Source of the DNA: an uncultured bacterium
GTDB lineage: Bacteria > Krumholzibacteriota > Krumholzibacteriia > LZORAL124-64-63
Reading direction: 5' to 3'
Length of the DNA stretch: 64,000 nt
NCBI GenBank assembly: GCA_903859215.1
Contig: CAIOLW010000051.1
Location: 2,482 to 66,481 of the forward strand
Part shown: positions 5,259 through 49,430 of the stretch, piece by piece
Layout of the letters: every line of letters begins with the position of its first letter
Numbering within the stretch: position 1 is the first letter of the stretch
Translations under genes and position numbers: made by a program
Notes under the pieces: model-generated
What the model saw: only the letters and a program-made list of their open reading frames with translations
Told to the model about the DNA's origin: nothing
Databases searched by the model: none

Positions 5259-5378
5259 GGCTGGGCGTGCCTTTCCTTCTTGCTTCGGGCGGCGGAACCG
5301 ACCCATTATCCGTCCGTCCGGCGAAATGACAAGGACGCACTGTATTTTCGCGCACCCGGCTCCCGGAGGAGACCCCTT

Positions 5379-29266: not shown

Positions 29267-29319
29267 GTCGTGGTCTCCTTGTCGGTCCGGCCCACGCCGG
29301 CATGGTTGGCTGCCGGTGT

Positions 29320-30551: not shown

Positions 30552-32951
<2,400 letters not shown>

Positions 32952-33171: not shown

Positions 33172-33786
33172 ATGAACGGCTGTTCAGCCCCCATGCCCCG
33201 CCAGCCCACCGGTCGCAAGAAGGAAGCCATTCTCGACGCCGCGGTCGTGGAGATCGCCGCGCACGGCTACCACGGCACCACCGTGGCGATGATCGCCCGG
33301 CGGGCGGGCGTGGCCGACGGCACCATCTACCTCTACTTCCAGAACAAGGAAGAGGTGCTGGTCTCGCTGTTCGACCGCGCGATGGACCGCTTCACGGCGC
33401 TCGGCGCCGGCGAGCTGGCCCGGCTGGAGGACCCGGCCGCGCGCCTGGCCCGCATCATCGAGCTGCATCTTGAACTGGTGGGCGGCGACCGCGACCTGGC
33501 GATCATCACGCAGGTCGAGCTGCGCCACAGCGTCCATTTCCTGGACCAGCTGTCGCGCGCCAAGGTGGGGCAGTACCTGCAGGTCATCGGCGGCGTCATC
33601 GCCGAGGGGCAGCAGGCCGGCCTGTGGCGCCGCGACCTGGAGGCGGGGCTGCTGGCCAAGGCCGTCTTCGGCATCCTCGACGAGATGGCCACCGACTGGG
33701 TGCTCTCGCGACGCAACACCCGCCTGGCGGCCCGCGCCGACGCGGTGACCCGCATCGTCATGGGGGCGCTCCGGCCCGAGGCCTGA
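33172..33786 (+). CDS. fadR: TetR family fatty-acid-degradation repressor (YsiA/FadR-type)
   Basis: ILDAAVVEIAAHGYHGTTVAMIARRAGVADGTIYLYFQNKEEVLVSLF, DRDLAIITQVELRHS and FGILDEMATDWVL closely parallel B. subtilis FadR (YsiA). An alternative start at 33193 is possible. Confidence 0.88.
   Translation: MNGCSAPMPRQPTGRKKEAILDAAVVEIAAHGYHGTTVAMIARRAGVADGTIYLYFQNKEEVLVSLFDRAMDRFTALGAGELARLEDPAARLARIIELHLELVGGDRDLAIITQVELRHSVHFLDQLSRAKVGQYLQVIGGVIAEGQQAGLWRRDLEAGLLAKAVFGILDEMATDWVLSRRNTRLAARADAVTRIVMGALRPEA
33173..33186. promoter_or_regulatory. second palindrome TGAAC-GGCT-GTTCA overlapping the fadR start codon
   Basis: Read directly. It shares the TGAA/TTCA arms with the 33011 palindrome, so it is a possible autoregulatory site. 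Confidence 0.3.
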
Positions 33787-33947: not shown

Positions 33948-36900
33948 GTGCGGTTTTTGCGACATCCGGCCAGCCCGTCGGCACTGGGCCGACTCGGGGC
34001 GGTATTGACAGTTTTCTGGGCAGGGATGGCCCTCGCGGGGTCCTTCGTCCAGGTCCAGGTGCTGCTGCCGGGCGAGGCCGCGGCGCCAGGCACCATCAGC
34101 GGCAAGACCGGTACGCCGGACGCCCAGGTGGCGGGGGTGCCGTTCGACGTGGTCGTGCGGGCCTGCGACTCGACCTGGTCTACGGTCGGCTCGGCCAGCG
34201 ACGTCATCCGCCTGACCTCGACCGCGGGCTCGGCCGTGCTGCCGGCGCCTTCGGTGCTGATCGGCGGGACGGCGACGTTCCGGGTCATCCTGCCGGCGAG
34301 CGGCACCGCGCGCTTCACGGCGCAGGACCAGACGAACTTGATGATCCCGCTCGGCAGCTCGACGAACATGACCGCGGTCGCGCTGACCGGTTTCCGCTTC
34401 CAGGACGCGGCGCCGCACGAGCGGGCAGCCGGTGTCCCGTTCTCGACGTCGCTGACGGCGATCGATGCGAGCGGCAACGTCGTGCTCGGCTACCACGGGC
34501 CGGTGTCCCTCGAGCAGCTGACCAGCCAGGGCGTCGGGCGCGTCGAGCCGGCGACCATCAACCTCGCGAGCGGCGTGTGGAGCGGCACCCTGACCGTGTT
34601 CCGCGCCGATACGGCCAACCAGCCGGCCGGCAGTGTCCGGGTGCACGCGCACCTGCCGGGCGATCCCGGTCGCAGCGGCACTTCCGACAACTTCATCGTC
34701 GATGCCGGCGCGTTCGCGCGCCTGCAGCTGCTGGCGCCGGGCATGACCGCGGTGCCGGGCAGCGTCAACGGGTACGAAGGCGTTCCCGCCAGCCAGTCGG
34801 CGATGGCGACGTTCCAGGTTTCGGCCCGCGCCACCGACCCGTGGTGGAATCCCGTCTCCTCGACGCACCAGGTGCGGCTGGTCTCCAGCGACTCGTGGGC
34901 GACGACGCCGCTGACGATGACGCTCGTTTCCGGCTTCGCGCAGGCGAGCGTGGCGCTCGCGACGACCGGAGGCCAGACGCTGACGGCGTACGACCTCATC
35001 GACGCGACCATCACGACGATGGTCACGCCGGTGATCCCGGTCACGGCGGCCGCGGCCAGCCACTTCCAGTTCTCGACGCTGCCGTCCGGCGCCACTGCCG
35101 GCCAGCCCATCACGATGACGATCCGCGCCGTCGACGCGACGGGCACGACGATCACGACTTTCGACGGCAACGCGCGCCTGAGCGCGACGACGGGCGCCAC
35201 CACGATGAGCCCCGAGGCGGTCACGTTCATCGACGGCGTGTGGACCGGGCCGGTGACGCTGTTCGGCGCCGCCGGCGGCACGACGGTCACCTGCCAGGAC
35301 TATGCGACCCCGCCCCACCAGGGTGCGAGCGCCGCGGTCAACGTCGGCCCGGGCGCCTGGACCGGTGTGCAGCTGCTGCTGCCCGGCCAGGTGGCGGTGC
35401 CGGGGACGACGATCGGCATCACCGGCGAGCCCGAGCCGCAGAGCGCCGGGCAGGCGCTGGCGATCAACGTGCGCGCGGTCGACGACTGGTACAACCTCGT
35501 GCCGGGCGCGGCCGGCGCGCTGCAGCTGACGGGCACCGACCCGAGCCTGGCCGTGGCCGGGACGCCGGCGCTGGCCGGCGGGTCCGCCACCGTCACCATC
35601 ACCCCTTACCTGGCGGGAGCGCAGGGCGTGGCCTGCGCCGTGCCGTCGATGCCCTCGATCGACGCCGGGCACAGCGCGGGATTCCTCGTCTCGGCGGGGC
35701 CGTTCACGAAGCTGCTGCTGACCTTGCCGGGCCAGGCGCCGCTGCCGGGCGACGGCGAGGGCCGCGCCGGCGCGGCCGACGACCAGTCGATTACGTACGC
35801 GTTCGCGGCCGTCGTGCGCGCGACCGACGACTGGTTCAACCCGCTGGCCTCGGCGACCGACCTCGTGCAGCTGGCCTGCACCGACCCCTCGGCGCAGGTG
35901 AACGGGCCGCTGGCGATGACCGCCGGCACGGCGACGTTCACGGTGCGCCTGGCCACCGGCGGCTACCAGATGCTGACGGCGACCAACCTCACGCGCCCGG
36001 CGATGGCCGCCAGTGCCACGCAGGTGCGCGCCATCTCCAGCGGCCTGCACCTGACGGCCGCGATCACGCAGGAATCGATCCAGGCCGGCGCGCCGTTCAC
36101 GCTCGAGGTGACCGCGCGCAACGACGCCGGCAGCATCATCCAGGAATGCAACGCGCAGGTCACCGTGCTGGCCGTCGGCGCGCACGACCAGGCGCCGGGC
36201 CGCGGCGCGCTCAGCGCGACCACGTTCCAGATGCTGCAGGGCCGGCGCACGATCAGCCTCTCGTACACGTTCGCCGAGGATGTGCTGCTACGCATCAGCG
36301 ACGACGCCGGCTCGACGCCCGCCGTCACGGACGCGCTGCAGGTGGTGCCCGGCGATCCGTCCGTGCTCGAACTGACGGGCGAACCGGCGTGGGTGCGGCC
36401 CGGGAGCGCCATCGACCTGACGGCGCGACTGACCGACGCGTGGGGCAACGGCGTCCCGCACCAGAGCGTGACGTTCGCCGTTGCCGAGGGCGACAGCGGC
36501 ATGCTGGCCCCCGGGCTGGGCAAGGCCGTGTCGGTGACCACCGGCACGGGCGGGGCCGCAGCGGCGCAGTACCAGGCGCCCGGCTTCGCGCAGCAGTTCA
36601 CCGTGACCGCGGCGTGCGGCGGGCTCAGCGCCGGCTGCGACGTGGTCACGGCCGAGATCGATCCCGCGGCGGCCGCGGGCTACCTGACCAACTACCCGAA
36701 CCCGTTCCACCCCGGCGACGGACCGACGACCATCGCCTGGAAGCTGGATGCGGCATCGGAAGTGCGGCTGCGGATCTACACCACGAGCGGTGGGCTGGTC
36801 CTGGACCGGCGCTTCGCGGCGGGCGGGCCCGGCGGCAGCAACGGCAACAACGAATTCACCTGGGATGGGAAGAACGGCGACGGCGTGGACGTCGCCAGCG

Positions 36901-36983
36901 GCGGCTACGTGCTGCGCGTCGAGGCGCAGGGCTCAGGAACCACCCAACACGTCATGCGCCGCAAAGTCGGCGTGGTCTGGTAG
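33948..36983 (+). CDS. 1011-aa surface protein of alternating Ig-like modules with FlgD-Ig/T9SS-type CTD
   Basis: GTG at 33948 lies 7 nt after AAGGAG. Signal-like LGAVLTVFWAGMALAGS. Four 'LLLPG..PG..G.TG.P..Q.AG..F...VRA.D.W.N' modules alternate with invasin/BIG1-like modules (AGVPFSTSLTAIDASGNVV, AGQPITMTIRAVDATGTTI, AGAPFTLEVTARNDAGSII, IDLTARLTDAWGNGV). The CTD reads NYPNPFHPG...VRLRIYTTSGGLV...FTWDGKNGDGVDVASGGYVLRV...KVGVVW. Confidence 0.82.
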   Translation: MRFLRHPASPSALGRLGAVLTVFWAGMALAGSFVQVQVLLPGEAAAPGTISGKTGTPDAQVAGVPFDVVVRACDSTWSTVGSASDVIRLTSTAGSAVLPAPSVLIGGTATFRVILPASGTARFTAQDQTNLMIPLGSSTNMTAVALTGFRFQDAAPHERAAGVPFSTSLTAIDASGNVVLGYHGPVSLEQLTSQGVGRVEPATINLASGVWSGTLTVFRADTANQPAGSVRVHAHLPGDPGRSGTSDNFIVDAGAFARLQLLAPGMTAVPGSVNGYEGVPASQSAMATFQVSARATDPWWNPVSSTHQVRLVSSDSWATTPLTMTLVSGFAQASVALATTGGQTLTAYDLIDATITTMVTPVIPVTAAAASHFQFSTLPSGATAGQPITMTIRAVDATGTTITTFDGNARLSATTGATTMSPEAVTFIDGVWTGPVTLFGAAGGTTVTCQDYATPPHQGASAAVNVGPGAWTGVQLLLPGQVAVPGTTIGITGEPEPQSAGQALAINVRAVDDWYNLVPGAAGALQLTGTDPSLAVAGTPALAGGSATVTITPYLAGAQGVACAVPSMPSIDAGHSAGFLVSAGPFTKLLLTLPGQAPLPGDGEGRAGAADDQSITYAFAAVVRATDDWFNPLASATDLVQLACTDPSAQVNGPLAMTAGTATFTVRLATGGYQMLTATNLTRPAMAASATQVRAISSGLHLTAAITQESIQAGAPFTLEVTARNDAGSIIQECNAQVTVLAVGAHDQAPGRGALSATTFQMLQGRRTISLSYTFAEDVLLRISDDAGSTPAVTDALQVVPGDPSVLELTGEPAWVRPGSAIDLTARLTDAWGNGVPHQSVTFAVAEGDSGMLAPGLGKAVSVTTGTGGAAAAQYQAPGFAQQFTVTAACGGLSAGCDVVTAEIDPAAAAGYLTNYPNPFHPGDGPTTIAWKLDAASEVRLRIYTTSGGLVLDRRFAAGGPGGSNGNNEFTWDGKNGDGVDVASGGYVLRVEAQGSGTTQHVMRRKVGVVW

Positions 36984-36996
36984 GCCGGGAGGCGCC

Positions 36997-38292
36997 ATGA
37001 ACACGAACAGGCACACACCCCAGCGCAGGCGGCGGACTCTGGCACCGCCGGCAACGTCGACCGTGTTGGCACGGATGCTGGCGCTGGCGGCGATGCTGGC
37101 GGTGGCGAACCTCGCAGTGGCCGGCAACGGCAGCGAGGGGTTGCCGGGCGACTGGCTCAATCGCTTCGACAGCGCGCGCGGCGTGGCGATCGGCGGCGCG
37201 CGGGTCGCATTGGCCGACGAGCCCTTGTCGGCGCTGGTCAACCCGGCGGCCGCGGCGTGGCTCGAGCGCGGCGCCGTGCAGGTAAACACGACGCGGCTGT
37301 TCGCGGACGCGTCGGTGAGCAGCTTCGGCATCGCGTTGCCGGCCACCGGCCGGCCGTCGCTGGCGTTCAACGCGCTGAGCCTCTCTTCGGGCGGGTTCGA
37401 CCGCACGGGTGCCGAATCGGACCTGTCGCTCGGAACGTTCGACGAAGGCAACATGGCCCTCGGCCTGGCCGTGGCGCAGCCTTTGGGCGACCGCCTGGCC
37501 GCCGGCGCGCAGGTCAAGCTGGTGCGCCAGTCGCTGGACGAGTTCAACGCCAGCGGCCTGGGCTTTGACCTCGGCGTGATCGCCCGTGCGCCGGGAGGGC
37601 TGCAGGTGGGCGTCTCGGCGGTCAACCTCGGTGGTCCGACGCTGGCGATGCGCATGCGCGACGAGACCTACCTGCGCGAGCTGCGCGGCGGCGCGGCGCT
37701 CCCGGTCAACGGCGGCAACGGGCTGCTGGCCGTGGACATCGTGCAGCGCGACGGCGCGGACACGCAGTTCCACGTGGGCGGTCGCTTCCGCCTGCAGGCG
37801 CTGGAACTGGGCGTGGGCTACGACATCGACAACTTCGCCGCGGGCTTCAGCTACCACCTGCCCAACGGGCTGCAGCTGGACTACGCGATGAGCGACCACG
37901 AGCTGGGGCTCGTGCATCGCATCGGCCTGACCTGGCGCTTCGGCGGCTTCAGCGCCGAGGCCAAGGCGTCGCCGGCCGTGTTCTCGCCGACCGGCGGCGA
38001 GCCGCTGACGCGGTTCAGCCTGAAGGCGCACACGCGCGCCGACGCGCTCGCGTGGCACCTCGACATCACGAACAACTCGGGCGTCGTCGTCCGCACGTTC
38101 GCCGGCCAGGGCCAGCCCCCGGCCGACATCGTCTGGGACGGCAAGGACTCGGTCGGCCGGCCATTGCCGGACGGCGACTATACATACCGCCTGCGCGTGG
38201 ACGAGCGCGGGGGCACCACGCTGCAGGCGCGGCAGGGCACGGTCGAGATCGCCAGCGGCGGGTTGCTCGGAACGATCGGGGTGGCGCGATGA
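36997..38292 (+). CDS. PorV/PorQ/FadL-like outer-membrane barrel with C-terminal FlgD-Ig-like domain
   Basis: ATG at 36997. Signal peptide LALAAMLAVANLAVAG. N-terminal motif SARGVAIGGARVALADEPLSALVNPAAAAWL, the FadL/PorV-type 'GGA..A..D.sA...NPA' motif. About 300 aa of strand pattern ends in LTWRFG. Then FSPTGGEPLTRFSLKAH...VVRTFAGQGQPPADIVWDGKDSVGRPLPDGDYTYRL. Confidence 0.7.
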   Translation: MNTNRHTPQRRRRTLAPPATSTVLARMLALAAMLAVANLAVAGNGSEGLPGDWLNRFDSARGVAIGGARVALADEPLSALVNPAAAAWLERGAVQVNTTRLFADASVSSFGIALPATGRPSLAFNALSLSSGGFDRTGAESDLSLGTFDEGNMALGLAVAQPLGDRLAAGAQVKLVRQSLDEFNASGLGFDLGVIARAPGGLQVGVSAVNLGGPTLAMRMRDETYLRELRGGAALPVNGGNGLLAVDIVQRDGADTQFHVGGRFRLQALELGVGYDIDNFAAGFSYHLPNGLQLDYAMSDHELGLVHRIGLTWRFGGFSAEAKASPAVFSPTGGEPLTRFSLKAHTRADALAWHLDITNNSGVVVRTFAGQGQPPADIVWDGKDSVGRPLPDGDYTYRLRVDERGGTTLQARQGTVEIASGGLLGTIGVAR

Positions 38293-41200
38293 ACGGTCGG
38301 CTTCGTCTTCGCGGGAAGGGCGGCCGCCTGGCTGCGTTGCCCGTCATCATCATCCTGGGCTCGGCGCTGCCCGCGCTGGCGGGTGAACCGGCGCCGGCCG
38401 TGACCATGGCCCCTGGCCTGCGCTACGAAGTTGCCGCGCGCGCGGCGGCCGACGGCGACCTGGCCCCGCTGCGTGTGATGCAGGAGGCGATCGGCGGCGG
38501 CGCGCCGGGCGGCATGACGCCGGGCGCGGCGCTGCTGCTGCGCGGCAGCCTGGCCGATGCGCTGGGCGACCACGAGGGCGCGGCGAAGCTGTTCCTGCAG
38601 GGCGCAGGCAAGGACACGGGCGCCGACTGGAAGGAAGCGGCGTCGTTCCTGGCGGCGCAGGCGCTGGAGTCGGCCGGCGACGACGAGGCCGCGATCAAGT
38701 CGTGGACGCGCTGGCAACTGGACCACCCGAACGGGCGCCTGGCCACCGAGGCCGGGCTGCGGCTGGCGTGGCTGCAGCTGCGCGCAGGACATGATGTTGA
38801 AGCGACGGCCACCATCACGGCGCTGGCGCAGGCGCATCCCTGGCTGCAGACGGATGCCGCCTGGCAGCGCGCGCAGGCGATGATCGACTACCTGGCTGGC
38901 AAGCCGGCCGATGCGCTGGCCGCGCTGGGCGACGACCCGCAGGGCGCCGGATCGCTGTACCTGAAGGGCCTGTGCGAGGCGGCGCTGGAGCAGCCGCTGC
39001 CGGCCGCCGCATCGTTCCAGGCCGTGGCCGCGCGCTACCCGCAGTCGCCGCTGCGCGACGCGGCGCTGTTCGCGAAGGCCAACACCTTCCTGGCCGGCGG
39101 CGCGTGGCGCAGCGCGGCCGAGGATTTTGCGGTCGTCGTGGCCGGCACTTCGAACGCCGACCTTGCCGCCGAGGCGACGGTGCGCCAGGCCACGGCCTGC
39201 CACCTGGACGGCGACTCGCCGAAGGCGATCGCGCTGCTGCGCGACCTGACCCGCCAGCGCAAGGGCACCGAGGTGGCCTCGCGCGCGCAGTTCCTGCTGG
39301 GCGACGTGCTGGCCGCCACGGGCGACCACGCCGGCGCCATCACCGAACTGAGCACGCTCCTGGCCGACTATTTCGACCGCGACGTCGCGGCCCGCGCGCA
39401 GTACCGCATCGCGCGCAGCTACGCGGCCCTCGGGCAGGTCGACGACGCGACGACCGCCTGCCTGGCCGTCGTCTCGGGCTACCCGCAGTCCCCGCAGGCG
39501 CCCGCGGCGGCCTACCTGGCCGGGTGCGGGCTGCTGGCCGCGAACCGGCCGGACGAGGCGGCCCCGTACTTCCAGCTGGTGCTCGACCGCTACGGCAAGG
39601 ATGCCGGCGGCGGCGGGGCGGCGGTCTTCGCCGACCCCGAACACTACGAACTGGTCGAGGCCGCGCTGTGCATGCTGCAGGTTTCGTGGCGGCAGACCGG
39701 CGACACCGGCCGCCTGAGCGGCGCCGCGCACGCGCTGCTGCAGCGCCTGCCGGCCAGCCGTTCGCCGTGGCGGGCGTGGGCGCTGTTGATCGATGCCGAC
39801 GCGCAGGCGGGGCAGGGCCTGTACGCCGATGCGCGCGCCAGCCTCGAGGTGCTGCAGAACGAGTTCCCCGACCACGCCGCGCTGCCGGCGGCCGGCCAGT
39901 TGCTGGCCTGGACGTACGCGCAGGAGGGCGACCAGGACCGCGCCGTGGCGGCCAGCGAGGCGCTGCTCGCGCGCGACACCGGCGGCGGCGACCGCGACCT
40001 GTACAACCAGGCGCTGCTGAACATCGCGCACGTGCGCTTCAACCAGGGCCGCCACGCCGAGGCGCTGCCCGTGTACGAGGAGTTCCTGCGGCGCAACGCG
40101 CAGCATGCCGATCGCCAGCTGGTGCTGTACCAGGCCGGCCTGTGCTACCTGCGGCTCGACCGCGCGGGCGATGCGGCGGACCGCTGGGAAGCGGCCGTCG
40201 CGCTGGACCCGAAGACCGGGTTGGCCGAGCAGGCGTGGACCCGCGCCGGCGACCTCTACTTCCAGGCTGAACGCTATGACGACGCACGCCGCTGCTACCG
40301 CGGCCTGCTCGACAACTTCGGCGGCGGTGAGACTGCCGAACTGGGCCGCCTGCGCCTGGCGCAGTGCGATTACAACGCCGGCCGCGACCAGGATGCCGTC
40401 GCCGGGTTCGGGCAGTTCGTAGAGAAGTATCCGCGCTCCCAATTGCGGGCCGACGCCGAGCACGGGCTGGAGCAGGCGCTCTACCGGCTGGGCCAGGCCG
40501 ACGACGGCGTGGCGCAGCTGGCCGACCTCGTGGAACACCACCCCGACAGCCGGTTCGCGGCCGATGCGCAGTTCCGCATCGCCAGCCGGCTCTACGAGAA
40601 CAAGGAATTCGAGAAGGCTGCCGACCAGTTCCGCCTGGTGGTCAGCCGCTGGCCGTCGTACTCGGCGGCCGACCGCGCGCAGTACCTGATGGCCGAGTCG
40701 TACGCCGAGGCCGGCAAGAGCGACGAGGCGAAGCAGGGCTACGAGCAGTTCCTCGGGTTCTTCGGCAAGAGCGAGCTGGGCGTGTCCGCGCGCTTCCGCC
40801 TGGGCATGAATCGCTTCGAGGCCGGGGATTACCGCGCGGCTGCCGGCAGCTTCGGCGAGGTCGTCGCCGCGGCGCCCGGCGGGGACATGGGCAAGGCCGC
40901 TCTCTACAACCTGGCGCTCTGTGAACGGCTGGGCGGCCGGCCGGCCGTCGCGGCGGACCGGTTGCTGGACTACCGCAAGCAGTACCCGAACGACGAGCGC
41001 GCGGCCGCGGTGGCCTTCCAGCTGGGCGACATGCACGAACAGTCCGGCCGGTTGCCCCAGGCCATGACGGAGCTGGCCCTTGCGGCGGCCGCCCCGTGCG
41101 AGGATCCGCTGCGCACAGAGGTGCAGTACCGCCTCGGCGCCTGTCGCGAGAAACTGGCCGACCTGACGGGCGCGCTCGCCGCGTACCGCCAGGCGGCGCA

Positions 41201-41387
41201 GTGCAACGACCCGGTCAACGCCTTCCGGTTGTCGGCGCTGGCCCGCTCGGCGGTGCTCAGCGAGGACGCCGGCGACCTGGCCGCGGCCCTGGCGGCCTAT
41301 CGGGACCTGATGAAGAACGCAGCTGATCCGCAACTGGTGGCCGCGGCCACCGACCGCGCGGCGCAACTGGCGACCGTGGTGCGCTAG
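38289..41387 (+). CDS. 1032-aa secreted tetratricopeptide-repeat protein (YbgF/BamD-like repeats)
   Basis: ATG at 38289 (ATGA overlap). Signal peptide LAALPVIIILGSALPALAGEP. TPR units run throughout (AQYRIARSYAALGQVDDA, AQFRIASRLYENKEFEKAADQF, AQYLMAESYAEAGKSDEAKQGYEQF...). Confidence 0.85.
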   Translation: MNGRLRLRGKGGRLAALPVIIILGSALPALAGEPAPAVTMAPGLRYEVAARAAADGDLAPLRVMQEAIGGGAPGGMTPGAALLLRGSLADALGDHEGAAKLFLQGAGKDTGADWKEAASFLAAQALESAGDDEAAIKSWTRWQLDHPNGRLATEAGLRLAWLQLRAGHDVEATATITALAQAHPWLQTDAAWQRAQAMIDYLAGKPADALAALGDDPQGAGSLYLKGLCEAALEQPLPAAASFQAVAARYPQSPLRDAALFAKANTFLAGGAWRSAAEDFAVVVAGTSNADLAAEATVRQATACHLDGDSPKAIALLRDLTRQRKGTEVASRAQFLLGDVLAATGDHAGAITELSTLLADYFDRDVAARAQYRIARSYAALGQVDDATTACLAVVSGYPQSPQAPAAAYLAGCGLLAANRPDEAAPYFQLVLDRYGKDAGGGGAAVFADPEHYELVEAALCMLQVSWRQTGDTGRLSGAAHALLQRLPASRSPWRAWALLIDADAQAGQGLYADARASLEVLQNEFPDHAALPAAGQLLAWTYAQEGDQDRAVAASEALLARDTGGGDRDLYNQALLNIAHVRFNQGRHAEALPVYEEFLRRNAQHADRQLVLYQAGLCYLRLDRAGDAADRWEAAVALDPKTGLAEQAWTRAGDLYFQAERYDDARRCYRGLLDNFGGGETAELGRLRLAQCDYNAGRDQDAVAGFGQFVEKYPRSQLRADAEHGLEQALYRLGQADDGVAQLADLVEHHPDSRFAADAQFRIASRLYENKEFEKAADQFRLVVSRWPSYSAADRAQYLMAESYAEAGKSDEAKQGYEQFLGFFGKSELGVSARFRLGMNRFEAGDYRAAAGSFGEVVAAAPGGDMGKAALYNLALCERLGGRPAVAADRLLDYRKQYPNDERAAAVAFQLGDMHEQSGRLPQAMTELALAAAAPCEDPLRTEVQYRLGACREKLADLTGALAAYRQAAQCNDPVNAFRLSALARSAVLSEDAGDLAAALAAYRDLMKNAADPQLVAAATDRAAQLATVVR

Positions 41388-41426
41388 CGCGGACGGGATG
41401 GTCCGTCCACAACGCAAGGAGTACGG

Positions 41427-42140
41427 ATGTTTGTCGACTTCGACTGGGGTGCAGCGCTGGGACAGAGCCCGATCCTGGGTGTGCTGATCCTGTGCAGTAT
41501 GGTGACGCTTGCTTTCGCGATCGAACGGCTGAACTACTACCGCCGTCGCAGCGGCGACACGGACGCCGTCATGCGCCGGACGATGGCCTCGGTGCAGCGC
41601 GGCCGGATCGACGAGGCCGTCGAGCAGGTGCAGGAACTGTCGCATCCGCTCGGGGCGGTCGCGGCCGGGACGCTGCACGGTTTCAGTCGCGCGCCGCAGG
41701 AGGCCGAGGAGATCATGCACGTGATGCTTAACCAGCAGAAGCTGCTGCTCGAGCGCAACACGGGCCTGATCGGCACGATGGCGGCCGTCACGCCGCTGAT
41801 CGGCCTGCTCGGCACCGTGTGGGGCATCATGCGCGCCTTCCAGGCGATGAGCAAGGCAACCGCCGTCGGTCCGTCGATCGTGGCTGCCGGCGTCGCCGAG
41901 GCCCTGGTGACCACGGCTGCCGGCCTGGTCGTCGCGGTGCCCGCGGTGATCCTCTATAACCACCTGAACCGCCGCCAGACCACGATGCTGGCGGAGGCCG
42001 AGAACCACACGCGCATGCTGTGCGTGGCCGCGCGCTCCGCAGCGGCATACGCCGACGCCGCGCAGGCCGAGGCGGCCGCAAGCGCCGTGCATGCGGTGCG
42101 CCGGTCGGCCTCGCCGTCGCGCGCGACGGTGCCGGTGTGA
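41427..42140 (+). CDS. exbB: MotA/TolQ/ExbB proton-channel family protein
   Basis: Three TM segments and the signature TPLIGLLGTVWGIMRAF...GPSIVAAGVAEALVTTAAGLVVAVPAVILYN. Confidence 0.92.
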   Translation: MFVDFDWGAALGQSPILGVLILCSMVTLAFAIERLNYYRRRSGDTDAVMRRTMASVQRGRIDEAVEQVQELSHPLGAVAAGTLHGFSRAPQEAEEIMHVMLNQQKLLLERNTGLIGTMAAVTPLIGLLGTVWGIMRAFQAMSKATAVGPSIVAAGVAEALVTTAAGLVVAVPAVILYNHLNRRQTTMLAEAENHTRMLCVAARSAAAYADAAQAEAAASAVHAVRRSASPSRATVPV

Positions 42141-42556
42141 TGATGCGCCGACGTGACCAGGGCGTCGAAGCGGGCCCGCTATCCGAGATCAACACCACGC
42201 CGCTGATCGACGTGTCGCTGGTGCTGGTGGTGATCCTGATGGTGGCGTCGCCGCTGGCGTTCGAGTCCAGCTTCGGCGTGCACAAGGGCGCGCCGCTGGC
42301 GCAGCCGGCCGTGATCGAGGACGTGCCCGAGCGCGTCGAACTGGCGATCACCGGCGAGAACCGCGTCGAGGTGAACGGCCGCGCCGTGGCCATCGACCAG
42401 CTGGCGGGCGCGCTGGCGCCGCTGCTGGGGACGGGCGCCCCGAAGCGCGACGTGGCCGTCTCGTGCGCCGACCAGGTCAGCCACGGCGCCTTCGTGCGCG
42501 TGCTGGACATTGCGAAACTGAACGGCGCGGCGAACATCGCCGTCGCGGAGAAGTGA
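42140..42556 (+). CDS. exbD: ExbD/TolR family protein (copy 1)
   Basis: ATG at 42140 abuts the exbB stop. EINTTPLIDVSLVLVVILMV is typical of ExbD. Confidence 0.9.
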   Translation: MMRRRDQGVEAGPLSEINTTPLIDVSLVLVVILMVASPLAFESSFGVHKGAPLAQPAVIEDVPERVELAITGENRVEVNGRAVAIDQLAGALAPLLGTGAPKRDVAVSCADQVSHGAFVRVLDIAKLNGAANIAVAEK

Positions 42557-42557
42557 C

Positions 42558-42986
42558 ATGAGACCGAGGCAGACGACTGGCGCTGCGCCGATGGCGAAGA
42601 TCAACGTGACGCCGATCATCGACGTCGCGCTGGTGCTGGTCATCATCCTGCTGGTGACGGCGCCCATGATGTCGATGTCCCAGCTGCCGGTCGACCTGCC
42701 CGGGGCGCACGCGCGCGATACCGAGCGCGCGAACTTCATCAGCCTGACGATGACCGCCGACGGCACCCTGGCGCTGGACGACAAGGCGCTCGGCGGCCTG
42801 GCTGAAGTGGCCCCGCGCCTGCGCGCGCGCCTGGCCGAGGGCCGGGACAAGAACCAATTGGTCGTCGTGCGGGCCGACGCGAAGCTGCCGCACGCCGCGG
42901 TGCGCCGGCTGATGGACGCCGCGCGCGAGGCCGGCGCCGTCAACCTCGGCATCGCCACCAGCCAGATCACGGGCGGCACGCCATGA
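42558..42986 (+). CDS. exbD: ExbD/TolR family protein (copy 2)
   Basis: KINVTPIIDVALVLVIILLVTAPMM, then LVVVRADAKLPHAAVRRLMDAAREAG. Confidence 0.9.
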   Translation: MRPRQTTGAAPMAKINVTPIIDVALVLVIILLVTAPMMSMSQLPVDLPGAHARDTERANFISLTMTADGTLALDDKALGGLAEVAPRLRARLAEGRDKNQLVVVRADAKLPHAAVRRLMDAAREAGAVNLGIATSQITGGTP

Positions 42987-43972
42987 ACATGCTGGCCATG
43001 CACGCCGAGTTCCGGGGCATGCGCAAGCGGGCGCAGCGGGCGATGGCGCTGAGCGTCGCGCTGCATGCGCTGCTGCTGTTCGCGCTCGTACGGCTGCAGG
43101 GGGCGAAGGCCGAGGAGCCGCGCATCGTCGAGGTTTCGTGGCTCGAGCCGGCGGCAGTTGTCGAGCCGGTCGTCGCGCCCCCGGTCGTTGTCGCGCCCCC
43201 GGCGCCGCAGGAGAAGCCCGCACCGCCTAAGGTCACCGAGCCCGCGCCGCGCACCGCGCCGACCAAACGCCCGCAGCCCGCCGGCCCGACGCCCGCGGAG
43301 CGTCACGCCGCGGCCGAGGCGGCGGACCGCCAGGCGAAGCTGGACCGGCTGGCGGCAACGAGGGCGACCGTGTCGCGCGAACTGGACGTGGCCCCGGCGT
43401 CGTCGGCCACGCGGCAACTGCTTGCGGGTGCGCCGACGGGCGGCTCGGACCTCACGAGGCTGGCGGCGGCGACGATGGCGCCCGTGGCACAGAAGGGCCG
43501 GCCGGTGGCGCTCGCGCGCGGCCCCGAGGTCAAGGCGGCGGCGCTGGCGCTCAATCGCGGCCCGGCCGTGGTCGGGGGCGGCCTGCCGGCGGCGGCCGAG
43601 GGACCTGGCGCGGGCCGTGGCGCCGGTTCGGCGACGGAGGCGGCCGCGGAGCCGGCCACGATGACGGTGACCCCGGGCGATGTCGTGCTGGACGGCCCGG
43701 CCGCCGCCCGCGCGGTGGTCTCGCAGGTCCTGCCGACGTATCCCGACTGGGCGCGCCGCCAGGCCGTCGAGGCCGTGGTGAAGCTGCAGTTCACGGTGCT
43801 GCCGGACGGGCGCGTGCGCGAGGACGTGCAGGTGACCCGCACCGGCGGGTTCCGTGAGTTCGACGATCGCGCGGCGTCCGCGCTGCGCCGGTGGCGGTTC
43901 GCGCCACTGGCCGGCGGCGACGCCGCAGGACAGATGGGCACGATCACCTTCCGTTTCCGCCTGCACGGTTGA
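42983..43972 (+). CDS. tonB: TonB/TolA-like energy transducer (C-terminal TonB domain)
   Basis: ATGA overlap with exbD2. N-terminal TM segment ALSVALHALLLFALV, a Pro/Ala-rich spacer (PVVAPPVVVAPPAPQEKPAPPK), and a C-terminal PTYPDWARRQAVEAVVKLQFTVLPDGRV...ALRRWRFAP. Confidence 0.88.
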   Translation: MNMLAMHAEFRGMRKRAQRAMALSVALHALLLFALVRLQGAKAEEPRIVEVSWLEPAAVVEPVVAPPVVVAPPAPQEKPAPPKVTEPAPRTAPTKRPQPAGPTPAERHAAAEAADRQAKLDRLAATRATVSRELDVAPASSATRQLLAGAPTGGSDLTRLAAATMAPVAQKGRPVALARGPEVKAAALALNRGPAVVGGGLPAAAEGPGAGRGAGSATEAAAEPATMTVTPGDVVLDGPAAARAVVSQVLPTYPDWARRQAVEAVVKLQFTVLPDGRVREDVQVTRTGGFREFDDRAASALRRWRFAPLAGGDAAGQMGTITFRFRLHG

Positions 43973-43997
43973 ACCGGTGACTGGCGGGGAGGACGAT

Positions 43998-44996
43998 ATG
44001 GCGACCAAACGCACGCATGCATTCGGGTTGATGGTCCTCGTGGCTCTGGCTGTGGCGGCGCTGGCGGCGCTGCCGGCCTTCGCTGCGGGAAAGGCGCCGG
44101 TGACGGTGGCCTCGGTCAGCGCCCCCAAGGCGCCCGCGGCAACGCCCGTGACCACGGGCAAGGCTGCGCCCGCCTCGCTGCCGCCCAAGGGCGACGGCTC
44201 GCTCGGCAGCCTGACGGTCGAGGGCGCCAGCCAGGTGCGCATCCACTTCGAGCGGCCGCAGCTGAAACTCGACCTCGACCCGATGGCCGCGCCCGGCCTC
44301 GAGACCGAGTCGACGATGGCCATCGTCGAGCGCAAGCGGCCCAACCTGGTGCTGCCGCTGCTGGCCGATTCGGCGCAGGAACGCGCCGTGCGCACGCCGC
44401 ACCCGTGGCTGACCGGATTTGCGGTCGGCACGCTGGCGCGGCTGCGCCAGGACGTCAAGGGTGTCGCCGGCTGGCAGATCGAGATCATCGACGCGCGCGG
44501 CACCGTCGTGCGCCGGCTGGCCGGCGAGGGCGCGCCCGAACGCGAGATCGCCTGGGACGGCCTTGGCGACGACGGCGCCCCGGCGCCCTGCGGCCTGGCG
44601 TACGCGCCGGTCCTGACCGCCCGCGACAAGGCCGGCAACACGCGCCGCTTCGTCGGCGCCAGCTTCTCGCTGCCGGCCTACCGCGTCGAGGCGCCGACCG
44701 GCCCGTGCCTGCTGTTCTCGTCGGCCCAGTGGCGCGACGACCAGGGCCACGGCGTCTCGCCGCTGCTGGTCGAGGCGGCCACGGTCCTGAACCTGCACAC
44801 CGACCCGGACCGCCCGCTGGTGGTCACGGCGTCGGCGCCGACCGCCGACGAGGCCGAGGCGATCGGCCGCGAGGTCATCGACGCCCTGGCACCCCTGGTC
44901 GGCGGCGGCGACCACCGGTTGGAACTCGAAGCCCGCGTGGTGCCCGGTGCGCCGGCCGGCGGCACCGTCCAGGTGGCGCCGCGCGCCTCCACCTGA
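43998..44996 (+). CDS. secreted protein with FlgD-Ig-like domain and degenerate OmpA/Pal-like C-terminus
   Basis: ATG at 43998 after GGGGAGGA. Signal peptide LMVLVALAVAALAALPAFAAG. WQIEIIDARGTVVRRLAGEGAPEREIAWDGLGDDGAPAPCGLAYAPVLTARDKAGN is FlgD-Ig-like. The C-terminal LNLHTDPDRPLVVTASAPTADEAEAIGREVIDAL...LELEARVVPG only loosely resembles OmpA_C. Confidence 0.62.
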   Translation: MATKRTHAFGLMVLVALAVAALAALPAFAAGKAPVTVASVSAPKAPAATPVTTGKAAPASLPPKGDGSLGSLTVEGASQVRIHFERPQLKLDLDPMAAPGLETESTMAIVERKRPNLVLPLLADSAQERAVRTPHPWLTGFAVGTLARLRQDVKGVAGWQIEIIDARGTVVRRLAGEGAPEREIAWDGLGDDGAPAPCGLAYAPVLTARDKAGNTRRFVGASFSLPAYRVEAPTGPCLLFSSAQWRDDQGHGVSPLLVEAATVLNLHTDPDRPLVVTASAPTADEAEAIGREVIDALAPLVGGGDHRLELEARVVPGAPAGGTVQVAPRAST

Positions 44997-45024
44997 GCCC
45001 ATCGGCCCACGCGAGCAGCGGAGC

Positions 45025-45044
45025 GGGCGGCCCCTGGGCCGCCC
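45025..45044 (+). terminator. GC hairpin after the operon's last gene (weak terminator candidate)
   Basis: GGGCGGCC-CCTG-GGCCGCCC, with no clear U-tract (followed by GTTCCCG). Confidence 0.3.
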
Positions 45045-45144
45045 GTTCCCGTCCCGGCGATATTCCCTTCTGCCGCAGGCCGGATCACGCTATCTTCCCG
45101 GCATACCGGCCGGTTTCCGCCGGCCCAACCACGGGATCCGCCAC

Positions 45145-47277
45145 ATGGGCATCGACAACGACCCGGACGGGCGCGCCGAACGCCTGCTCGCGGACGACTT
45201 CCCCGCCGTCGACCTGGCCGCCTGGCGTCGCGACGTCGATCGCCTGCTGAAGGGCGCGTCGTTCGACAAGGCGATGGTCATGACGCTGGCCGAAGGCCTG
45301 CGCGTGCAGCCGCTGTACACGGTGGCGGACACGGCGGACGGCCTGTGGGGAGCGTCGCTGCCGGGGCAGGCGCCTTTCCTGCGCGGCGCGCCGGCCGGCG
45401 TCGACCAGCCCGTGCCCTGGCTGGTGGCGCAGGAACTGCCGCTGGCCGACGCCGGGCAGTTCAACCGCGCGCTGCTGCACGATCTCGAGCGCGGCCAGTC
45501 GGCCGTGGTGCTCAAGCTGGACGAGGCCGGCCGCCGCGGGCTCGACGCCGCGACCGCGCCCGCTGCCGCCGTCGGCCGGGGCGGGACGGCCGTCGCGGGG
45601 ATGGACGACCTGCGCGGCGCACTGGCCGGGGTCGACCTGGCCGCGTGCCCGCTGCTGCTGCAGGCGGGCGCCGCGACGCTGCCGGTGGTGGCCATGCTGG
45701 TCGCGCTGGCCGGCGAGCGCGGCACCCCGGTTGCGCAATTGTCCGGCGCCTGGGGCTGCGACCCGCTCGCCCTGACCGTCGCGGGCGACCCGCCCGCCCT
45801 GACGATCGACGCCATGTTCGACCACGCGGCGCTGCTCACGCACTGGGCCGCCGGCGCGGCGCCGGGCGTGCGCACGCTGTCCGTCTCGGATACGCCCTGG
45901 CACGAGGCCGGCGCCGACGGCGTGCTGTCGCTGGGCCTGGCGCTGGCGGGGGCCATCGAGACGCTGCGCGAGATGGAAGCGCGCGGCCTCGACCCGGAGG
46001 CCTGCGCGCCGCGACTGGCTTTCCAGGTGAGCCTGGACACCGATTTCTTCCTCGAGATTGCCCGCCTGCGCGCCCTGCGCGTGCTGTGGTCGGACGCACT
46101 GGCGGCCGCCGGCGTCGAGCGCCCGCGCACGGCCGCCTGGATCCACGCGCGCACAGGTGATCGCCAGTTCTCCACGCTCGATGCGCACACGAACCTGCTG
46201 CGCGCGACAACAGCCGCGATGGCCGCGGCCTGCGGCGGCGCCGACAGCCTGCACGTCTCGCCCTGGGATGCGCTGGCGGCGCAGCCCGGCGAGGCCGGCC
46301 GTCGCCTGGCGCGCAACCTCCACCTGGTGCTCGGCCACGAGTGCCGGTTCGGCGCCGTGATCGATCCCGCCGGCGGCTCCTGGTACGTGGAGAAACTCAC
46401 GCGCGAGGTGGGCGAGGGCGCCTGGGCCGTCATGCAGCAGGTCGAGAACGCCGGCGGCCTGCAGGCGGCGCTGCAGGAGGGACTCGTGCACCGGCTGGTG
46501 GAGACCGCGCGCGGGCGCCGCGCCGCGCGCCTGGCCCGGGTACAGGACGTGCGCGTCGGCGTCAACCGCTTCGCGACGATGCCGGCCGTCCAGCCGGCGC
46601 GCGCGGACATCGACCCGGTGTGGCTGGACGAACGTCGTCGCGCCGCGGCTTCGGCGCCGGTGGCGGTGCATCCTGCCGACCCGCAGGGCGATGCCGTCGC
46701 GCAACTGGCGGCGCTGGGCGCGGCCGCGCAGCGCGGCGCTTCGCTGGACACGCTCACGGCCGCGCTCGGCGGCAACACCACGGGTGGGGCGGCCGCGCCC
46801 TGGCCGACGCTGGCGGCCTGCCGTGACGCCGCGCCGTTCGAGTCTCTGGTCGCCCGCGTCATGCGCCTGTCCGCCCGCGCCCCCGCGCGCGGCCGCGTCC
46901 ACTGCCTGTGCCTGGGCGACGCTGCGCGTACGACACCGCGCCTGGACTTCGCGCGCGGCGCCCTGGCCGTCGGCGGCTTTGCCGTCAGCGCCGGCGCGTT
47001 CCACACCGACGCCGCGGCGGCCGTTGCCGAGGCGGGCGCGAACGGAGCGGCCACCGTCATGCTGGTCGGCCTCGACGAAGTGTACGTGGGGCTCGGCGCC
47101 GAGGTGGCGACGAGGCTGGCCGCCGCCGCGCAACCGCCGCTGCTGATGGCGGCCGGACGCGCCGGCGAGGCCACCGCCGCGCTGCAGGCCGCGGGCGTTG
47201 CGCGTTTTCTGCACGTGGGCAGCGACCTCGTGGCGGAACTGGGCGCGATCGTCGAAGCACTGGGAGGCGACCGATGA
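45145..47277 (+). CDS. mutA: methylmalonyl-CoA mutase small (beta) subunit
   Basis: ATG at 45145 inside ORF 44947..47277. [14 protein letters not shown] and [14 protein letters not shown] are typical MCM beta blocks. The stop overlaps the mutB start (ATGA at 47274-47277). Confidence 0.85.
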
Positions 47278-49430
47278 GCCGCCTGCCCGACTACACGCGA
47301 CTGCCCTGCCGCGTGCCCGGTCCCGACGCCGACCCGGCGCCCGCCGATCGGCCCACGCAGCCGACGCACGAGCAGATCCCCGTGCGCGCCTTCTACACGG
47401 CCGCCGACCTCGCCGGCTGCGAGCACACGGATTACCTGCCCGGCCAGGCGCCCTACCTGCGGGGCCCCTACGCCACGATGTACGTGACGCGCCCGTGGAC
47501 CGTGCGCCAGTACGCCGGCTTCTCGACCGCCACCGAGAGCAATGCCTTCTACCGGCGCAACCTAGCGGCCGGCCAGATGGGCCTGTCGGTGGCCTTCGAC
47601 CTGGCGACGCACCGCGGCTACGACAGCGACCACCCGCGGGTGGAGGGCGACGTCGGCAAGGCCGGCGTCGCGATCGACTCGGTCGAGGACATGAAGGTGC
47701 TCTTCGACGGCATCCCGCTCGACCGCATGTCCGTCTCGATGACGATGAACGGTGCCGTGCTCCCGATCATGGCGTTCTACATCATGGCCGGGCTCGAGCA
47801 GGGCGCAACGCCTGCGCAGCTGTCCGGCACGATCCAGAACGACATCCTCAAGGAGTACATGGTCCGCAACACGTACATCTACCCGCCGGCGTTCAGCCTG
47901 CGGGTGATCGCGGACATCTTCGGCTACACGGCGCGGCAGATGCCGAAGTTCAACAGCATCTCGATCAGCGGCTACCACATGCACGAGGCCGGCGCCACGG
48001 CCGACCTGGAACTGGCCTACACGCTGGCCGACGGCCTGGAGTATGTGCGCATCGGCCTGGCGGCCGGCCTCGGCATCGACGACTTTGCGCCGCGCCTGTC
48101 GTTCTTCTGGGGCGAGGGCGTCAATTACTTCATGGAGATCGCCAAGCTGCGGGCCGGGCGCGCGCTGTGGGCGAAGATGATCAAGGCGTTCGACCCGCAG
48201 GACGAGCGCTCGCTGATGCTGCGCACGCACTCGCAGACCTCGGGTTGGTCGCTGGCCGCGCAGGACCCGTTCAACAACGTGGCGCGCACCTGCGTCGAGG
48301 CGATGGCTGCCGCGCTGGGCGGCACGCAGTCGCTGCACACGAATGCGCTGGACGAGGCCATCGCGCTGCCGACCGACTTCTCGGCCCGCATCGCCCGCAA
48401 TACCCAACTCTACCTGCAGACGGAGACCGGCATCTGCCGTACCGTCGACCCGTGGGGCGGCAGCTGGTATCTTGAGAGCCTGACCGATGCGCTGCTTCGC
48501 AAGGCGTGGGGGCACATCCGCGAGGTCGAGGGCCACGGCGGCATGACGGCGGCCATCGAGCGCGGGCTGCCCAAACTGCGCATCGAGGAAGCGGCGGCCC
48601 GCCGGCAGGCGCGGCTCGACGCCGGACAGGAACTGGTGGTCGGCGTCAACCGCTGGCGCCTGGACCGCGAGGAGCCGCTCGAGATCCTCGAGGTCGACAA
48701 CACCGAGGTCCGTCGGCAGCAGGTGGCGCGGCTGGAACAACTGCGGCGAGAGCGCGACCCGCGCGCGGTCGAGTCGGCTCTGGCTGCGTTGACGCGGGCG
48801 GCGGCGGACGGCAACGGCAACCTGCTCGAACTGGCCGTCGAGGCGGCGCGCGTCCGGGCGACGCTCGGCGAGATCTCGTCGGCGCTCGAAACCGTGGCGG
48901 GGCGGCACCAGGCCGAGGTCCGCACCATCAGCGGCGTGTACGCCGCCGCGTTCCGGAGGGAGGACGGCATCGACAGCGTGGGGGAAACCAGGAAGCTGGT
49001 CGAGGCGTTCGCCGCGCACGAGGGCCGTCGCCCGCGCCTGCTCGTGGCCAAGATGGGCCAGGACGGGCACGATCGCGGCGCCAAGGTCGTGGCTACGGCG
49101 TTCGCCGACCTGGGCTTCGACGTCGACGTGGGGCCGCTCTTCCAGACGCCGGCCGAGACGGCGCGGCAGGCCGTGGAGAACGACGTGCACATCGTCGGGC
49201 TCAGCAGCCTGGCGGGCGGCCACAAGACACTGCTGCCGCAACTGGTGGCCGAATTGAAGAAGCTGGGCCGGGGCGACATCCTGGTCGTCTGCGGCGGCGT
49301 CATCCCGCCGCAGGACTACGACTTCCTGCGCGAGCAGGGCGCCGCGGCCATCTTCGGGCCGGGCACCGTGATCCCCGACGCGGCGCAGGCGCTGCTCGGC
49401 GAGATCAACCGCCGGCTGGGGTATGCGTAG
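47274..49430 (+). CDS. mutB: methylmalonyl-CoA mutase large (alpha) subunit, B12-binding
   Basis: [44 protein letters not shown], and the C-terminal B12 motif [23 protein letters not shown]. Confidence 0.95.

Follow-up and report, generated by a model that had tools for sequence, protein, structure and literature searches.

What does a membrane motor of the Tol/Exb family do when it is encoded in one operon with an outer-membrane barrel and a secreted surface protein? The question is raised by a block of eight genes, here called g1 to g8, at 33948-44996 on the + strand of a stretch of 64,000 nucleotides (nt) from an uncultured bacterium assigned to the Krumholzibacteriota (assembly GCA_903859215.1, contig CAIOLW010000051.1, positions 2,482 to 66,481), which we refer to as the window. 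A sequence-only reading of the window had described the block as an arrangement that echoes Tol-Pal and is tied to an adhesin and a barrel, and had proposed an apparatus powered by the proton-motive force (PMF) that spans the envelope and exports, anchors or moves the adhesin. The analyses described below indicate that exactly these eight genes are conserved as a unit in the lineage; judged from the sequences, the block looks like an undescribed envelope-spanning machine, and it fits a described but uncharacterised class of motors better than it fits Tol-Pal. The genes are as follows.

g1, 33948-36983, + strand, 1011 amino acids (aa): secreted Ig-repeat surface protein
g2, 36997-38292, + strand, 431 aa: outer-membrane beta-barrel of the PorV/PorQ/FadL family with a FlgD-Ig domain
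g3, 38289-41387, + strand, 1032 aa: periplasmic tetratricopeptide-repeat (TPR) protein
g4, 41427-42140, + strand, 237 aa: proton-channel subunit of the TolQ/ExbB/MotA family
g5, 42140-42556, + strand, 138 aa: first ExbD/TolR-like subunit
g6, 42558-42986, + strand, 142 aa: second, different ExbD/TolR-like subunit
g7, 42983-43972, + strand, 329 aa: TonB/TolA-type force transducer
g8, 43998-44996, + strand, 332 aa: secreted non-lipoprotein with a FlgD-Ig domain

Layout and conservation of the block

The eight open reading frames (ORFs) lie on one strand throughout, with a coding-type G+C content at third codon positions (GC3) of 0.90-0.94 in a window of about 71% G+C; signal peptides and conservation among relatives guided the choice of their start codons. 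From g1 to g8, the junctions consist of a 13 nt gap, an ATGA overlap, a 39 nt gap, a 1 nt overlap, a 1 nt gap (between g5 and g6), a second ATGA overlap and a 25 nt gap. These values, and the count of eight genes, agree with those given in the sequence-only reading, whose domain calls were also verified with the sole exception of the OmpA/Pal-like label of g8. The ATGA and 1-nt overlaps suggest translational coupling within the block. A consensus scan found no promoter-like or terminator-like site on the + strand inside the block, which is weak and uninformative evidence, and no Rfam family was found in the window.

Relatives of the block were sampled as 91 loci, comprising 11 genome loci and 80 metagenome contigs. 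The genome loci were retrieved with g4 as the query (46-84% identity) and come from metagenome-assembled genomes labelled Krumholzibacteriota, Krumholzibacteriia or just "bacterium"; below these same-lineage loci, identity dropped to about 30%, where the next matches were canonical TolQ loci of Alphaproteobacteria, and in the ExbB search the best 120 matches were all from the same lineage. The metagenome contigs were obtained with a g8 alignment, which identified 250 related stretches, 80 of which were kept (G+C 0.52-0.80). By tblastn, all eight genes were present in one order and on one strand in 18 of the 91 loci, that is, in every locus long enough to hold them, and a gene for which its locus had room was never absent. 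On the metagenome contigs, g8 is preceded by g7, g6, g5, g4, g3, g2 and g1 in turn, wherever the contig reaches. The order is kept down to 35-50% protein identity, with median protein identities of 40-51%, and the apparent exceptions proved to be artefacts, caused by the Ig domain of g2 cross-matching g8 or by the divergent linker of g7 failing the coverage filter. Such collinear recurrence in 18 of 18 sufficiently long loci indicates that the arrangement is not due to chance. Furthermore, g1 and g2 never part from the motor genes in the 91 loci, as the proposal of a single unit had implied, and an arrangement of motor and TPR genes lacking the surface protein or the barrel was looked for among the relatives and was not found.

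The surroundings of the block behave differently. Its upstream neighbour in the window is a TetR gene (33172-33786) and its downstream neighbours are methylmalonyl-CoA mutase genes, and both flanks are retained in close relatives only. Elsewhere, the downstream genes belong to ordinary metabolism (2-oxoglutarate dehydrogenase, pyridoxal-phosphate decarboxylase, trehalose synthesis), with the commonest downstream gene family present in 9 of 46 loci. No additional neighbour is conserved with the block, the flanks being lineage-specific metabolic genes. Since all eight genes are kept while the flanks turn over, the conserved unit consists of exactly these eight genes in a core-genome setting.

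In the window, the flanks form a fatty-acid and propionate context (18075-19805, 27476-29527, 30552-32951, 33172-33786 and 44947-50427), with genes for an acyl-CoA synthetase, an acyl-CoA dehydrogenase, a FadB-like fusion, the TetR regulator, and methylmalonyl-CoA mutase subunits together with MeaB. This context is likewise kept in close relatives only.

Proteins of the block

The five genes from g3 to g7 encode the TPR protein and the motor. The g3 protein has a type I signal peptide without a lipobox and consists of TPR repeats throughout according to Pfam (TPR_6, TPR_16, YfiO), while the NCBIfam matches are tol_pal_ybgF (220 bits, as seven repeated partial matches), BamD (157 bits) and PorW/SprE (112 bits). 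The g4 protein matches MotA_ExbB in Pfam (102 bits) and scores higher with the TolQ model (116 bits) than with the ExbB model (89 bits), both under the equivalog cut-offs. Both ExbD-type proteins keep the transmembrane Asp, g5 (ExbD, 61 bits) in PLIDVSLVL and g6 (ExbD, 91.5 bits; TolR model, 81.5 bits) in PIIDVALVL. Of the two, g6 is the more TolR-like and alone matches alphaproteobacterial TolR. As they are just 32-34% identical (approximate values from cross-matches), g5 and g6 form an unlike pair, and both are retained in all loci. The g7 protein is built as a bitopic transducer: about 20 cytoplasmic residues precede a transmembrane helix (nt 43040-43096) with an SxxxH motif (S24, H28), a 'motor box' beta-strand, IVEVSWLEP (aa 47-56, nt 43121-43150), follows about 20 residues after SxxxH, and a Pro/Ala-rich linker leads from the motor box to a TonB_C domain (54.7 bits, aa 251-327, nt 43733-43963). 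SxxxH and the motor box, with the consensus (I/L)(I/V/T)E(V/I)(S/T)W(L/I)(D/E)P, are conserved in 20 loci retrieved with the N-terminus of g7, and they match the SHLS motif and "motor box" of TolA and TonB as defined in PMC12204202.

The proposal of a PorV/FadL-like barrel carrying a FlgD-Ig domain is supported for g2 by its fold. In NCBIfam the protein matches PorV_fam (77.8 bits) and PorQ (70.6 bits), its C-terminus matches FlgD_ig, and its AlphaFold2 (AF2) model (pLDDT 77, pTM 0.71) shows a barrel followed by an Ig-like domain. In Foldseek, the top matches of the model were PorV chains of SprA-PorV complexes (8gl6_F and 6h3i_F; E about 1e-9, TM 0.58-0.64), with FadL ranking after PorV, and the NPA hatch motif of the FadL family (N82-P83-A84) is invariant. 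The terminal domain of g2 is placed as follows.

37999-38289, + strand: FlgD-Ig domain of g2, aa ~335-431

Bacterial outer-membrane barrels normally end in the periplasm, and we infer on this basis that the Ig domain of g2 is periplasmic. It cross-matches the Ig domain of g8 at about 40% identity.

In the surface protein g1, a signal peptide is followed by about eight domains rich in beta structure, and a sorting domain forms the C-terminus. In the window copy, the matches to Big_1 and MG4 are weak; among 14 orthologues, Big_1 was found in 13 (best E 4e-12), MG4 in 8 and Invasin_D3 in 5. The presence of Big_1 in 13 of 14 orthologues justifies calling g1 an Ig-repeat protein. Four of its domains (at aa 36, 259, 474 and 589) carry the motif LLLPGE..PG..G..G.P..Q.AG..F.V.V.A.D..WN.V., no tandem DNA repeats of note occur in the gene, and g1 alone has no sequence relative in PDB, its profile finding FlgD only. 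Full-length copies measure 1008-1024 aa in all clades, and conservation is even along the protein (30-50% per 50-aa block), reaching its highest values in the C-terminal domain (55-69%). In these respects g1 behaves like a fixed structural component, unlike a fast-evolving variable adhesin, and such behaviour is unusual for an adhesin. Thus, of the earlier description of g1 as an Ig-repeat adhesin, the Ig repeats stand, while the constant length and even conservation speak against a variable adhesin.

36684-36980, + strand: C-terminal domain of g1, aa 913-1011, a sorting domain like type A in type IX secretion systems (T9SS), with an NYPNPF motif

This domain ends the protein with NYPNPFHPG..TTI.W.L...V.L.IY...G..V....WDG.N..G..V.SG.Y...KVGVVW. 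Pfam places FlgD_ig at aa 924-995 (38 bits); the T9SS type A model does not pass E 0.01 on the domain, and the NCBIfam matches of g1 to T9SS proteins are confined to the C-terminal ends of those proteins. Nevertheless, the assignment of a T9SS-type C-terminal domain holds, the same motif and layout being common to two other proteins of the window (20044-22467 and 15885-17756). The occurrence of the g1-type domain on several secreted proteins indicates that it is the general type IX-style sorting tag of this lineage. The other proteins with such endings in or next to the window are the following.

20044-22467, + strand: FG-GAP/ASPIC protein ending in a FlgD_ig C-terminal domain, (N)PNPF...WDG...G.Y
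15885-17756, - strand: InlB-B-repeat protein with a FlgD_ig C-terminal domain and the same (N)PNPF...WDG...G.Y ending as g1
L124:3095-7216, just past the end of the window: 1373-aa S8 peptidase with a C-terminal FlgD_ig domain

The last protein, g8, has a type I signal peptide, no Cys and no lipobox. Its family comprises 256 representatives at E<=1e-30 (1.84 billion representatives searched), and about 60 full-length members (about 290-440 aa) are among the best 150 listed. The AF2 model has pLDDT >90 for aa 140-330 and consists of a FlgD-type Ig sandwich followed by a second domain; the FlgD_ig match is sub-threshold in the window copy (22.9 bits) and is found in 23 of the 27 members of the family alignment.

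44190-44303, + strand: conserved N-terminal segment of g8, SLTVEG...FERP.L.LDLDP..APGL, aa 65-102
44415-44693, + strand: FlgD-Ig domain of g8, aa ~140-232
44700-44981, + strand: beta-alpha-beta-alpha-beta-beta domain of g8, aa 235-328

The region at aa 60-140 is strongly conserved and modelled with low confidence. It carries the pattern SLTVEG...(V/I)RI.FERP.L.LDLDP..APGL, and the 27-member alignment has invariant columns at E75, R86, P87, P95 and 98-APGL-101. To our eye, the SLTVEG piece may resemble a TonB box.

The C-terminal domain of g8 had been labelled degenerate OmpA/Pal-like. Two observations favour the label: the order of secondary-structure elements is the same, and, among the best 150 matches of g8, 86 are multi-FlgD_ig proteins in which a true OmpA domain closes the chain at the position equivalent to that of the g8 domain. 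However, an OmpA/Pal identity was rejected, as no test gave significant similarity. Foldseek with the whole model returned FlgD and other Ig-like matches only and no OmpA; a profile search against PDB sequences gave nothing meaningful and no OmpA match; hhalign reached P 0.18 against 20 Pal/OmpA domains and P 0.13 against the OmpA domains of the multi-FlgD_ig proteins; Pfam searches of the 27 members at E<=5 found no OmpA; and a hidden Markov model of the domain alone scored 1-6 bits against the multi-FlgD_ig-OmpA proteins, in a consistent register. The label is left without statistical support. The multi-FlgD_ig proteins (P0086, P0105 and P0116-P0225) form a large and diverse family with lengths of 1000-4000 aa, with 6-23 tandem FlgD_ig/CHU_C-like domains and a true OmpA end; P0086, for example, has 4065 aa and 23 matched stretches.

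Several other features of the window and its continuation deserve mention. A set of genes resembling GldA/F/G (61429-63887, - strand, and L124:9049-13507) encodes an ABC ATPase, an ABC-2 permease, an ABC_transp_aux/DUF7088 protein and a DUF4340 protein; relatives of this set are gliding-associated in Bacteroidetes. A 336-aa protein at 52233-53243 (- strand), with weak matches to porin and SlpA beta-barrel domains, is possibly an outer-membrane or S-layer anchor porin. The ORF at 10414-12396 (- strand) encodes a 660-aa protein in which a thioredoxin/AhpC-like domain is fused to DUF6029, and that at 1707-6434 (- strand) a protein of 1575 aa in which the sole detected domain is a mid-protein alpha-amylase catalytic domain, with large unannotated regions on either side.

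Comparison with known envelope motors

Tol-Pal is operationally defined by its motor, its transducer, TolB and Pal (PMC12204202). The block shares with it a motor of the 5:2-type family, an arm of TolA/TonB type that carries SxxxH and the motor box, and retention in every relative examined; its TPR repeats match the YbgF/CpoB type, as they also match the BamD and PorW models. However, a TolQ-TolR motor with an SHLS/motor-box transducer also occurs in Ton and Agl and is thus not discriminating, and in other respects the block departs from Tol-Pal: it has neither TolB nor Pal, it contains two TolR-like genes, its TPR protein is fourfold longer and not lipidated, and it adds barrel and surface-protein genes. 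The reported lack of TolB was confirmed for the block, for the 64-kb window and for the 91 related loci within 10 kb: a TolB beta-propeller is absent from all eight proteins, and TolB candidates from the alphaproteobacterial loci gave no tblastn match in the window or in those loci, a soft negative because TolB diverges quickly. Queries with E. coli Pal and OmpA likewise found nothing within the same limits. Taken together, these results do not support framing the block as Tol-Pal. The two TolR-like genes and the long TPR protein, which the sequence-only reading had taken as a duplication and an expansion within Tol-Pal, are real features, but they are the signature of a separate, described class rather than oddities of Tol-Pal. 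Comparison with Ton systems gives a mixed picture. A Ton-type set is present (ExbB, ExbD, and TonB with TonB_C), with every equivalog model under its cut-off; however, the block contains no plugged 22-strand client with a TonB box, its sole barrel being of PorV/FadL type, and the scanned ORFs of the window gave no match to a TonB-dependent receptor domain.

The class in question combines one TolQ-like protein, two different TolR-like proteins, one or more large TPR proteins and a TonB-like or vWA transducer (PMC3169522, PMC11761067, PMC12204202, PMC6851124). It includes the Agl/Glt core operon (aglRQS with gltD/E/G/C), which is found with unknown function in Gammaproteobacteria, Geobacter and Fibrobacter, and from whose core complex the gliding and Nfs sporulation machines of Myxococcus evolved (PMC3169522). 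In the modelled Agl-Glt machine, an AglQ/AglS heterodimer sits inside AglR, outer-membrane barrels and the adhesin CglB form the distal part, and the TonB-CTD-like (C-terminal domain) GltG/GltJ are predicted to be bound to the 1191-aa TPR protein GltD (PMC11761067). The present block is similar in having one TolQ-like (g4) and two different TolR-like subunits (g5, g6) in one operon, a bitopic transducer with a TonB-like C-terminal domain (g7), a secreted TPR protein of about 1000-1200 aa (g3, 1032 aa, against 1191 aa for GltD) and an outer-membrane barrel with a surface protein as the output; moreover, the core in non-myxobacteria is a single operon, as here. It differs in having one TPR gene instead of three (GltD, GltE, GltC), in a transducer without the cytoplasmic FHA domain of Myxococcus GltG, in a barrel of the PorV/FadL family rather than GltA/B/H, and in a surface protein with Ig repeats and a type IX-style C-terminal domain, CglB being a vWA lipoprotein. 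Myxococcota loci (L027, L028) gave weak g4 matches only.

Two further gene clusters resemble the block. In Fibrobacter succinogenes, FSU_2396-2403 encodes OmpA, TPR, TPR, ExbB, ExbD, ExbD and TonB and is up-regulated on cellulose (PMC6851124). This cluster also belongs to the Fibrobacteres-Chlorobi-Bacteroidetes (FCB) superphylum, has TPR genes adjoining ExbB, two ExbD and TonB, is tied to cell-surface adhesion complexes, and includes an OmpA-family gene with the strand and helix order of the g8 domain. The Fibrobacter OmpA, compared by its published annotation, truly belongs to the family, a membership that could not be detected for g8, and neither a PorV-like barrel nor an Ig protein tagged with such a C-terminal domain has been reported there. 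In the Planctomycetes-Verrucomicrobia-Chlamydiae (PVC) group, a cluster of unknown function consists of TPR, tolQ-like, two heterologous tolR-like and vWA force transducer genes (PMC12204202); the TPR, motor pentamer gene, unlike TolR pair and SHLS-type transducer are shared, but the head of the transducer is vWA there and TonB_C here, and no barrel or surface-protein genes are described for it.

The outer-membrane end of the block has its closest parallel in type IX systems, in which cargo is encoded beside co-encoded shuttle barrels of the PorP/SprF type (PMC12618676). The tagged surface protein g1 beside the FadL-like barrel g2 recalls such pairs (PorV, PorQ-PorZ, SprB-SprF). These pairs share a common GldLM/PorLM motor, whereas the block has a private motor of Tol/Exb type, and g2 differs in its extra FlgD-Ig domain and in falling just under the family cut-off. 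The apparent novelty is that a private Tol/Exb-type engine is obligatorily joined to a barrel of PorV type, an adaptor with a FlgD-Ig domain and a tagged Ig-repeat protein. In the Krumholzibacteriota literature we found nothing on Tol, Ton, T9SS or the eight-gene block.

Possible mechanism and competing explanations

The explanation we favour, tentatively and at slightly less than an even chance, is that the block encodes a PMF-powered, envelope-spanning apparatus that acts on its own barrel and surface-protein module. Of the proposal made in the sequence-only reading, this retains the single functional unit and the barrel family, and drops the Tol-Pal framing and the OmpA label. Its functional and architectural analogue would be the Myxococcus Agl-Glt machine with its widespread 'core complex'. 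In such an apparatus, the inner-membrane engine would consist of g4, presumably a pentamer, the unlike TolR/ExbD-type subunits g5 and g6, and the transducer g7 with its Pro-rich linker and TonB_C head; g3 would provide a 1032-aa TPR scaffold in the periplasm; and the outer-membrane module would comprise the barrel g2, the soluble partner g8 with its homologous FlgD-Ig domain and the tagged surface protein g1. Export of g1 may follow the route common to proteins with this C-terminal domain, and the cognate barrel g2 may keep it at the surface, in the manner of PorQ with PorZ or of co-encoded shuttle barrels with their cargo. Docking of g7 could then proceed through its TonB-like head, by strand addition on the SLTVEG segment of g8 and/or on the Ig domain of g2 in the periplasm, with g3 providing the scaffold; a periplasmic Ig-like domain has been implicated in TonB coupling in Bacteroides (PMC12204202). 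Strokes of the motor would do work on the barrel-held g1, in the form of retention or release, conformational change or movement, and the output may be motility or adhesion, surface-layer handling or outer-membrane tethering. A bolder version is possible but rather doubtful: a Krumholzibacteriota surface machine that merges parts of both known non-flagellar gliding systems, with an Agl/Glt-like engine moving, exposing or tensioning g1, a Bacteroidetes-style cargo on a PorV-type barrel. Such a machine may serve in gliding, adhesion or surface-layer dynamics.

Several points weigh against the favoured explanation. The conserved linkage demonstrates that a function is shared, not which mechanism is at work, and the housekeeping neighbours and apparently vertical inheritance suit a basic envelope function equally well. 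The likeness of g3-g7 to Glt/Agl was established at the level of broad protein families, and the PorV-family score of g2 (77.8 bits) lies just under the cut-off of 90. A T9SS translocon is not established: PorK/L/M/N, SprA/Sov and PorU were not seen in the window and the 10 kb past its end, a continuation that contains no Tol or T9SS genes. Finally, the g1 orthologue of the closest relative (L001, CAIWHK010000072.1; L001:2525-5557) carries an in-frame TGA at codon 892, a position shortly upstream of the C-terminal domain that reads GGG in the window. The TGA could have arisen through misassembly, could cut off the protein before its sorting tag, or could be recoded.

The competitor with the best prospects, to which we give a modest chance, is a housekeeping system for envelope integrity or division, that is, a functional substitute for Tol-Pal in which the arm tethers or remodels the outer membrane through g8 and g2, g3 takes the role of CpoB, and g1 is a constitutive component of the surface layer. 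The preference of g4 and g6 for the TolQ and TolR models over those of ExbB and ExbD, the YbgF/CpoB-type repeats of g3, and the retention of the block in every relative examined, in a core-genome context and with similar rates for all eight genes, would all be expected of such a system. There is also a precedent, as Bacteroidetes lack a standard tol-pal and a fused substitute, PorE, has been proposed, and outside Proteobacteria TolA is indistinguishable from TonB (PMC12204202). However, the block, the window and the sequence flanking the 91 loci yielded neither TolB nor Pal, and g8 has neither a lipobox nor a detectable peptidoglycan-binding OmpA motif. Moreover, canonical tol-pal loci contain one TolR, as in L012-L043, and the alphaproteobacterial loci show the canonical order of tolQ, a single tolR, tolA, tolB and pal, whereas the block has two different TolR genes as in the Agl/Glt type, and the obligatory link to a tagged surface protein of 1000 aa would be left unexplained. 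It is unlikely that the block is instead two adjacent units, with g1-g2 a type IX-like cargo and its shuttle or anchor and g3-g8 a general TonB-type energy system. Flavobacterium cargo/shuttle pairs do work without a private motor (PMC12618676), and Fibrobacter ExbB-ExbD-ExbD-TonB and TPR genes occur without such a pair (PMC6851124); against this, the genes stay adjacent and in order in every locus, however deep the divergence, while the flanks change on both sides, the stop of g2 overlaps the start of g3 in the window, and the homologous FlgD-Ig domains shared by g2 and g8 link the two halves.

The remaining explanations assign the block to transport. Energised uptake, in which g2 would act as a FadL-type barrel and bring in hydrophobic or large substrates by means of g7, with g1 as a surface binder, draws on FadL as the second-best fold match, on the NPA hatch motif, on the beta-oxidation genes and TetR regulator that adjoin the block in the window and close relatives, and on the interpretation of the Fibrobacter cluster as a cellodextrin importer (PMC6851124). 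We nevertheless regard it as quite unlikely: more distant relatives do not share the fatty-acid genes around the block, PorV is a better fold match than FadL, the block has no 22-strand TonB-dependent transporter, and the tag of g1 is one of secretion or anchoring and not a lipoprotein signal. In addition, we know of no requirement for TonB in FadL-type transport. Most improbable of all is that the block energises and shuttles the C-terminal-domain export of the whole phylum, as a type IX-like system in which an ExbBD/TonB-type motor replaces PorLM/GldLM. No fewer than four proteins encoded in the window or beside it share the C-terminal domain, so that a dedicated export route must exist; in the 64 kb of the window, no PorV-family barrel and no 5:2-type motor were seen other than those of the block, and no gene for PorK/L/M/N, nor any Sov-like one, was noticed there. 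However, the inspection covered 64 kb and flanks and a standard T9SS may sit elsewhere, the block encodes no translocon-sized (SprA/Sov-like) protein, and a general engine would need no co-conserved single cargo.

Motors of the TolQR/ExbBD family that combine a pair of unlike TolR subunits with large TPR proteins occur widely, and their output outside Myxococcus gliding is unknown. The block offers a complete and genetically fixed parts list for this motor class, from the inner membrane to the surface, in an uncultured lineage, and it names three candidate contacts: between the TonB-like head of g7 and the SLTVEG segment of g8, between the FlgD-Ig domains of g2 and g8, and between the C-terminal domain of g1 and the PorV-like barrel g2. 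It would thereby tie type IX-style surface anchoring to a Tol/Exb-type engine, with a bearing on how force transducers diversified and on how Tol-Pal may be replaced in lineages without a standard locus.

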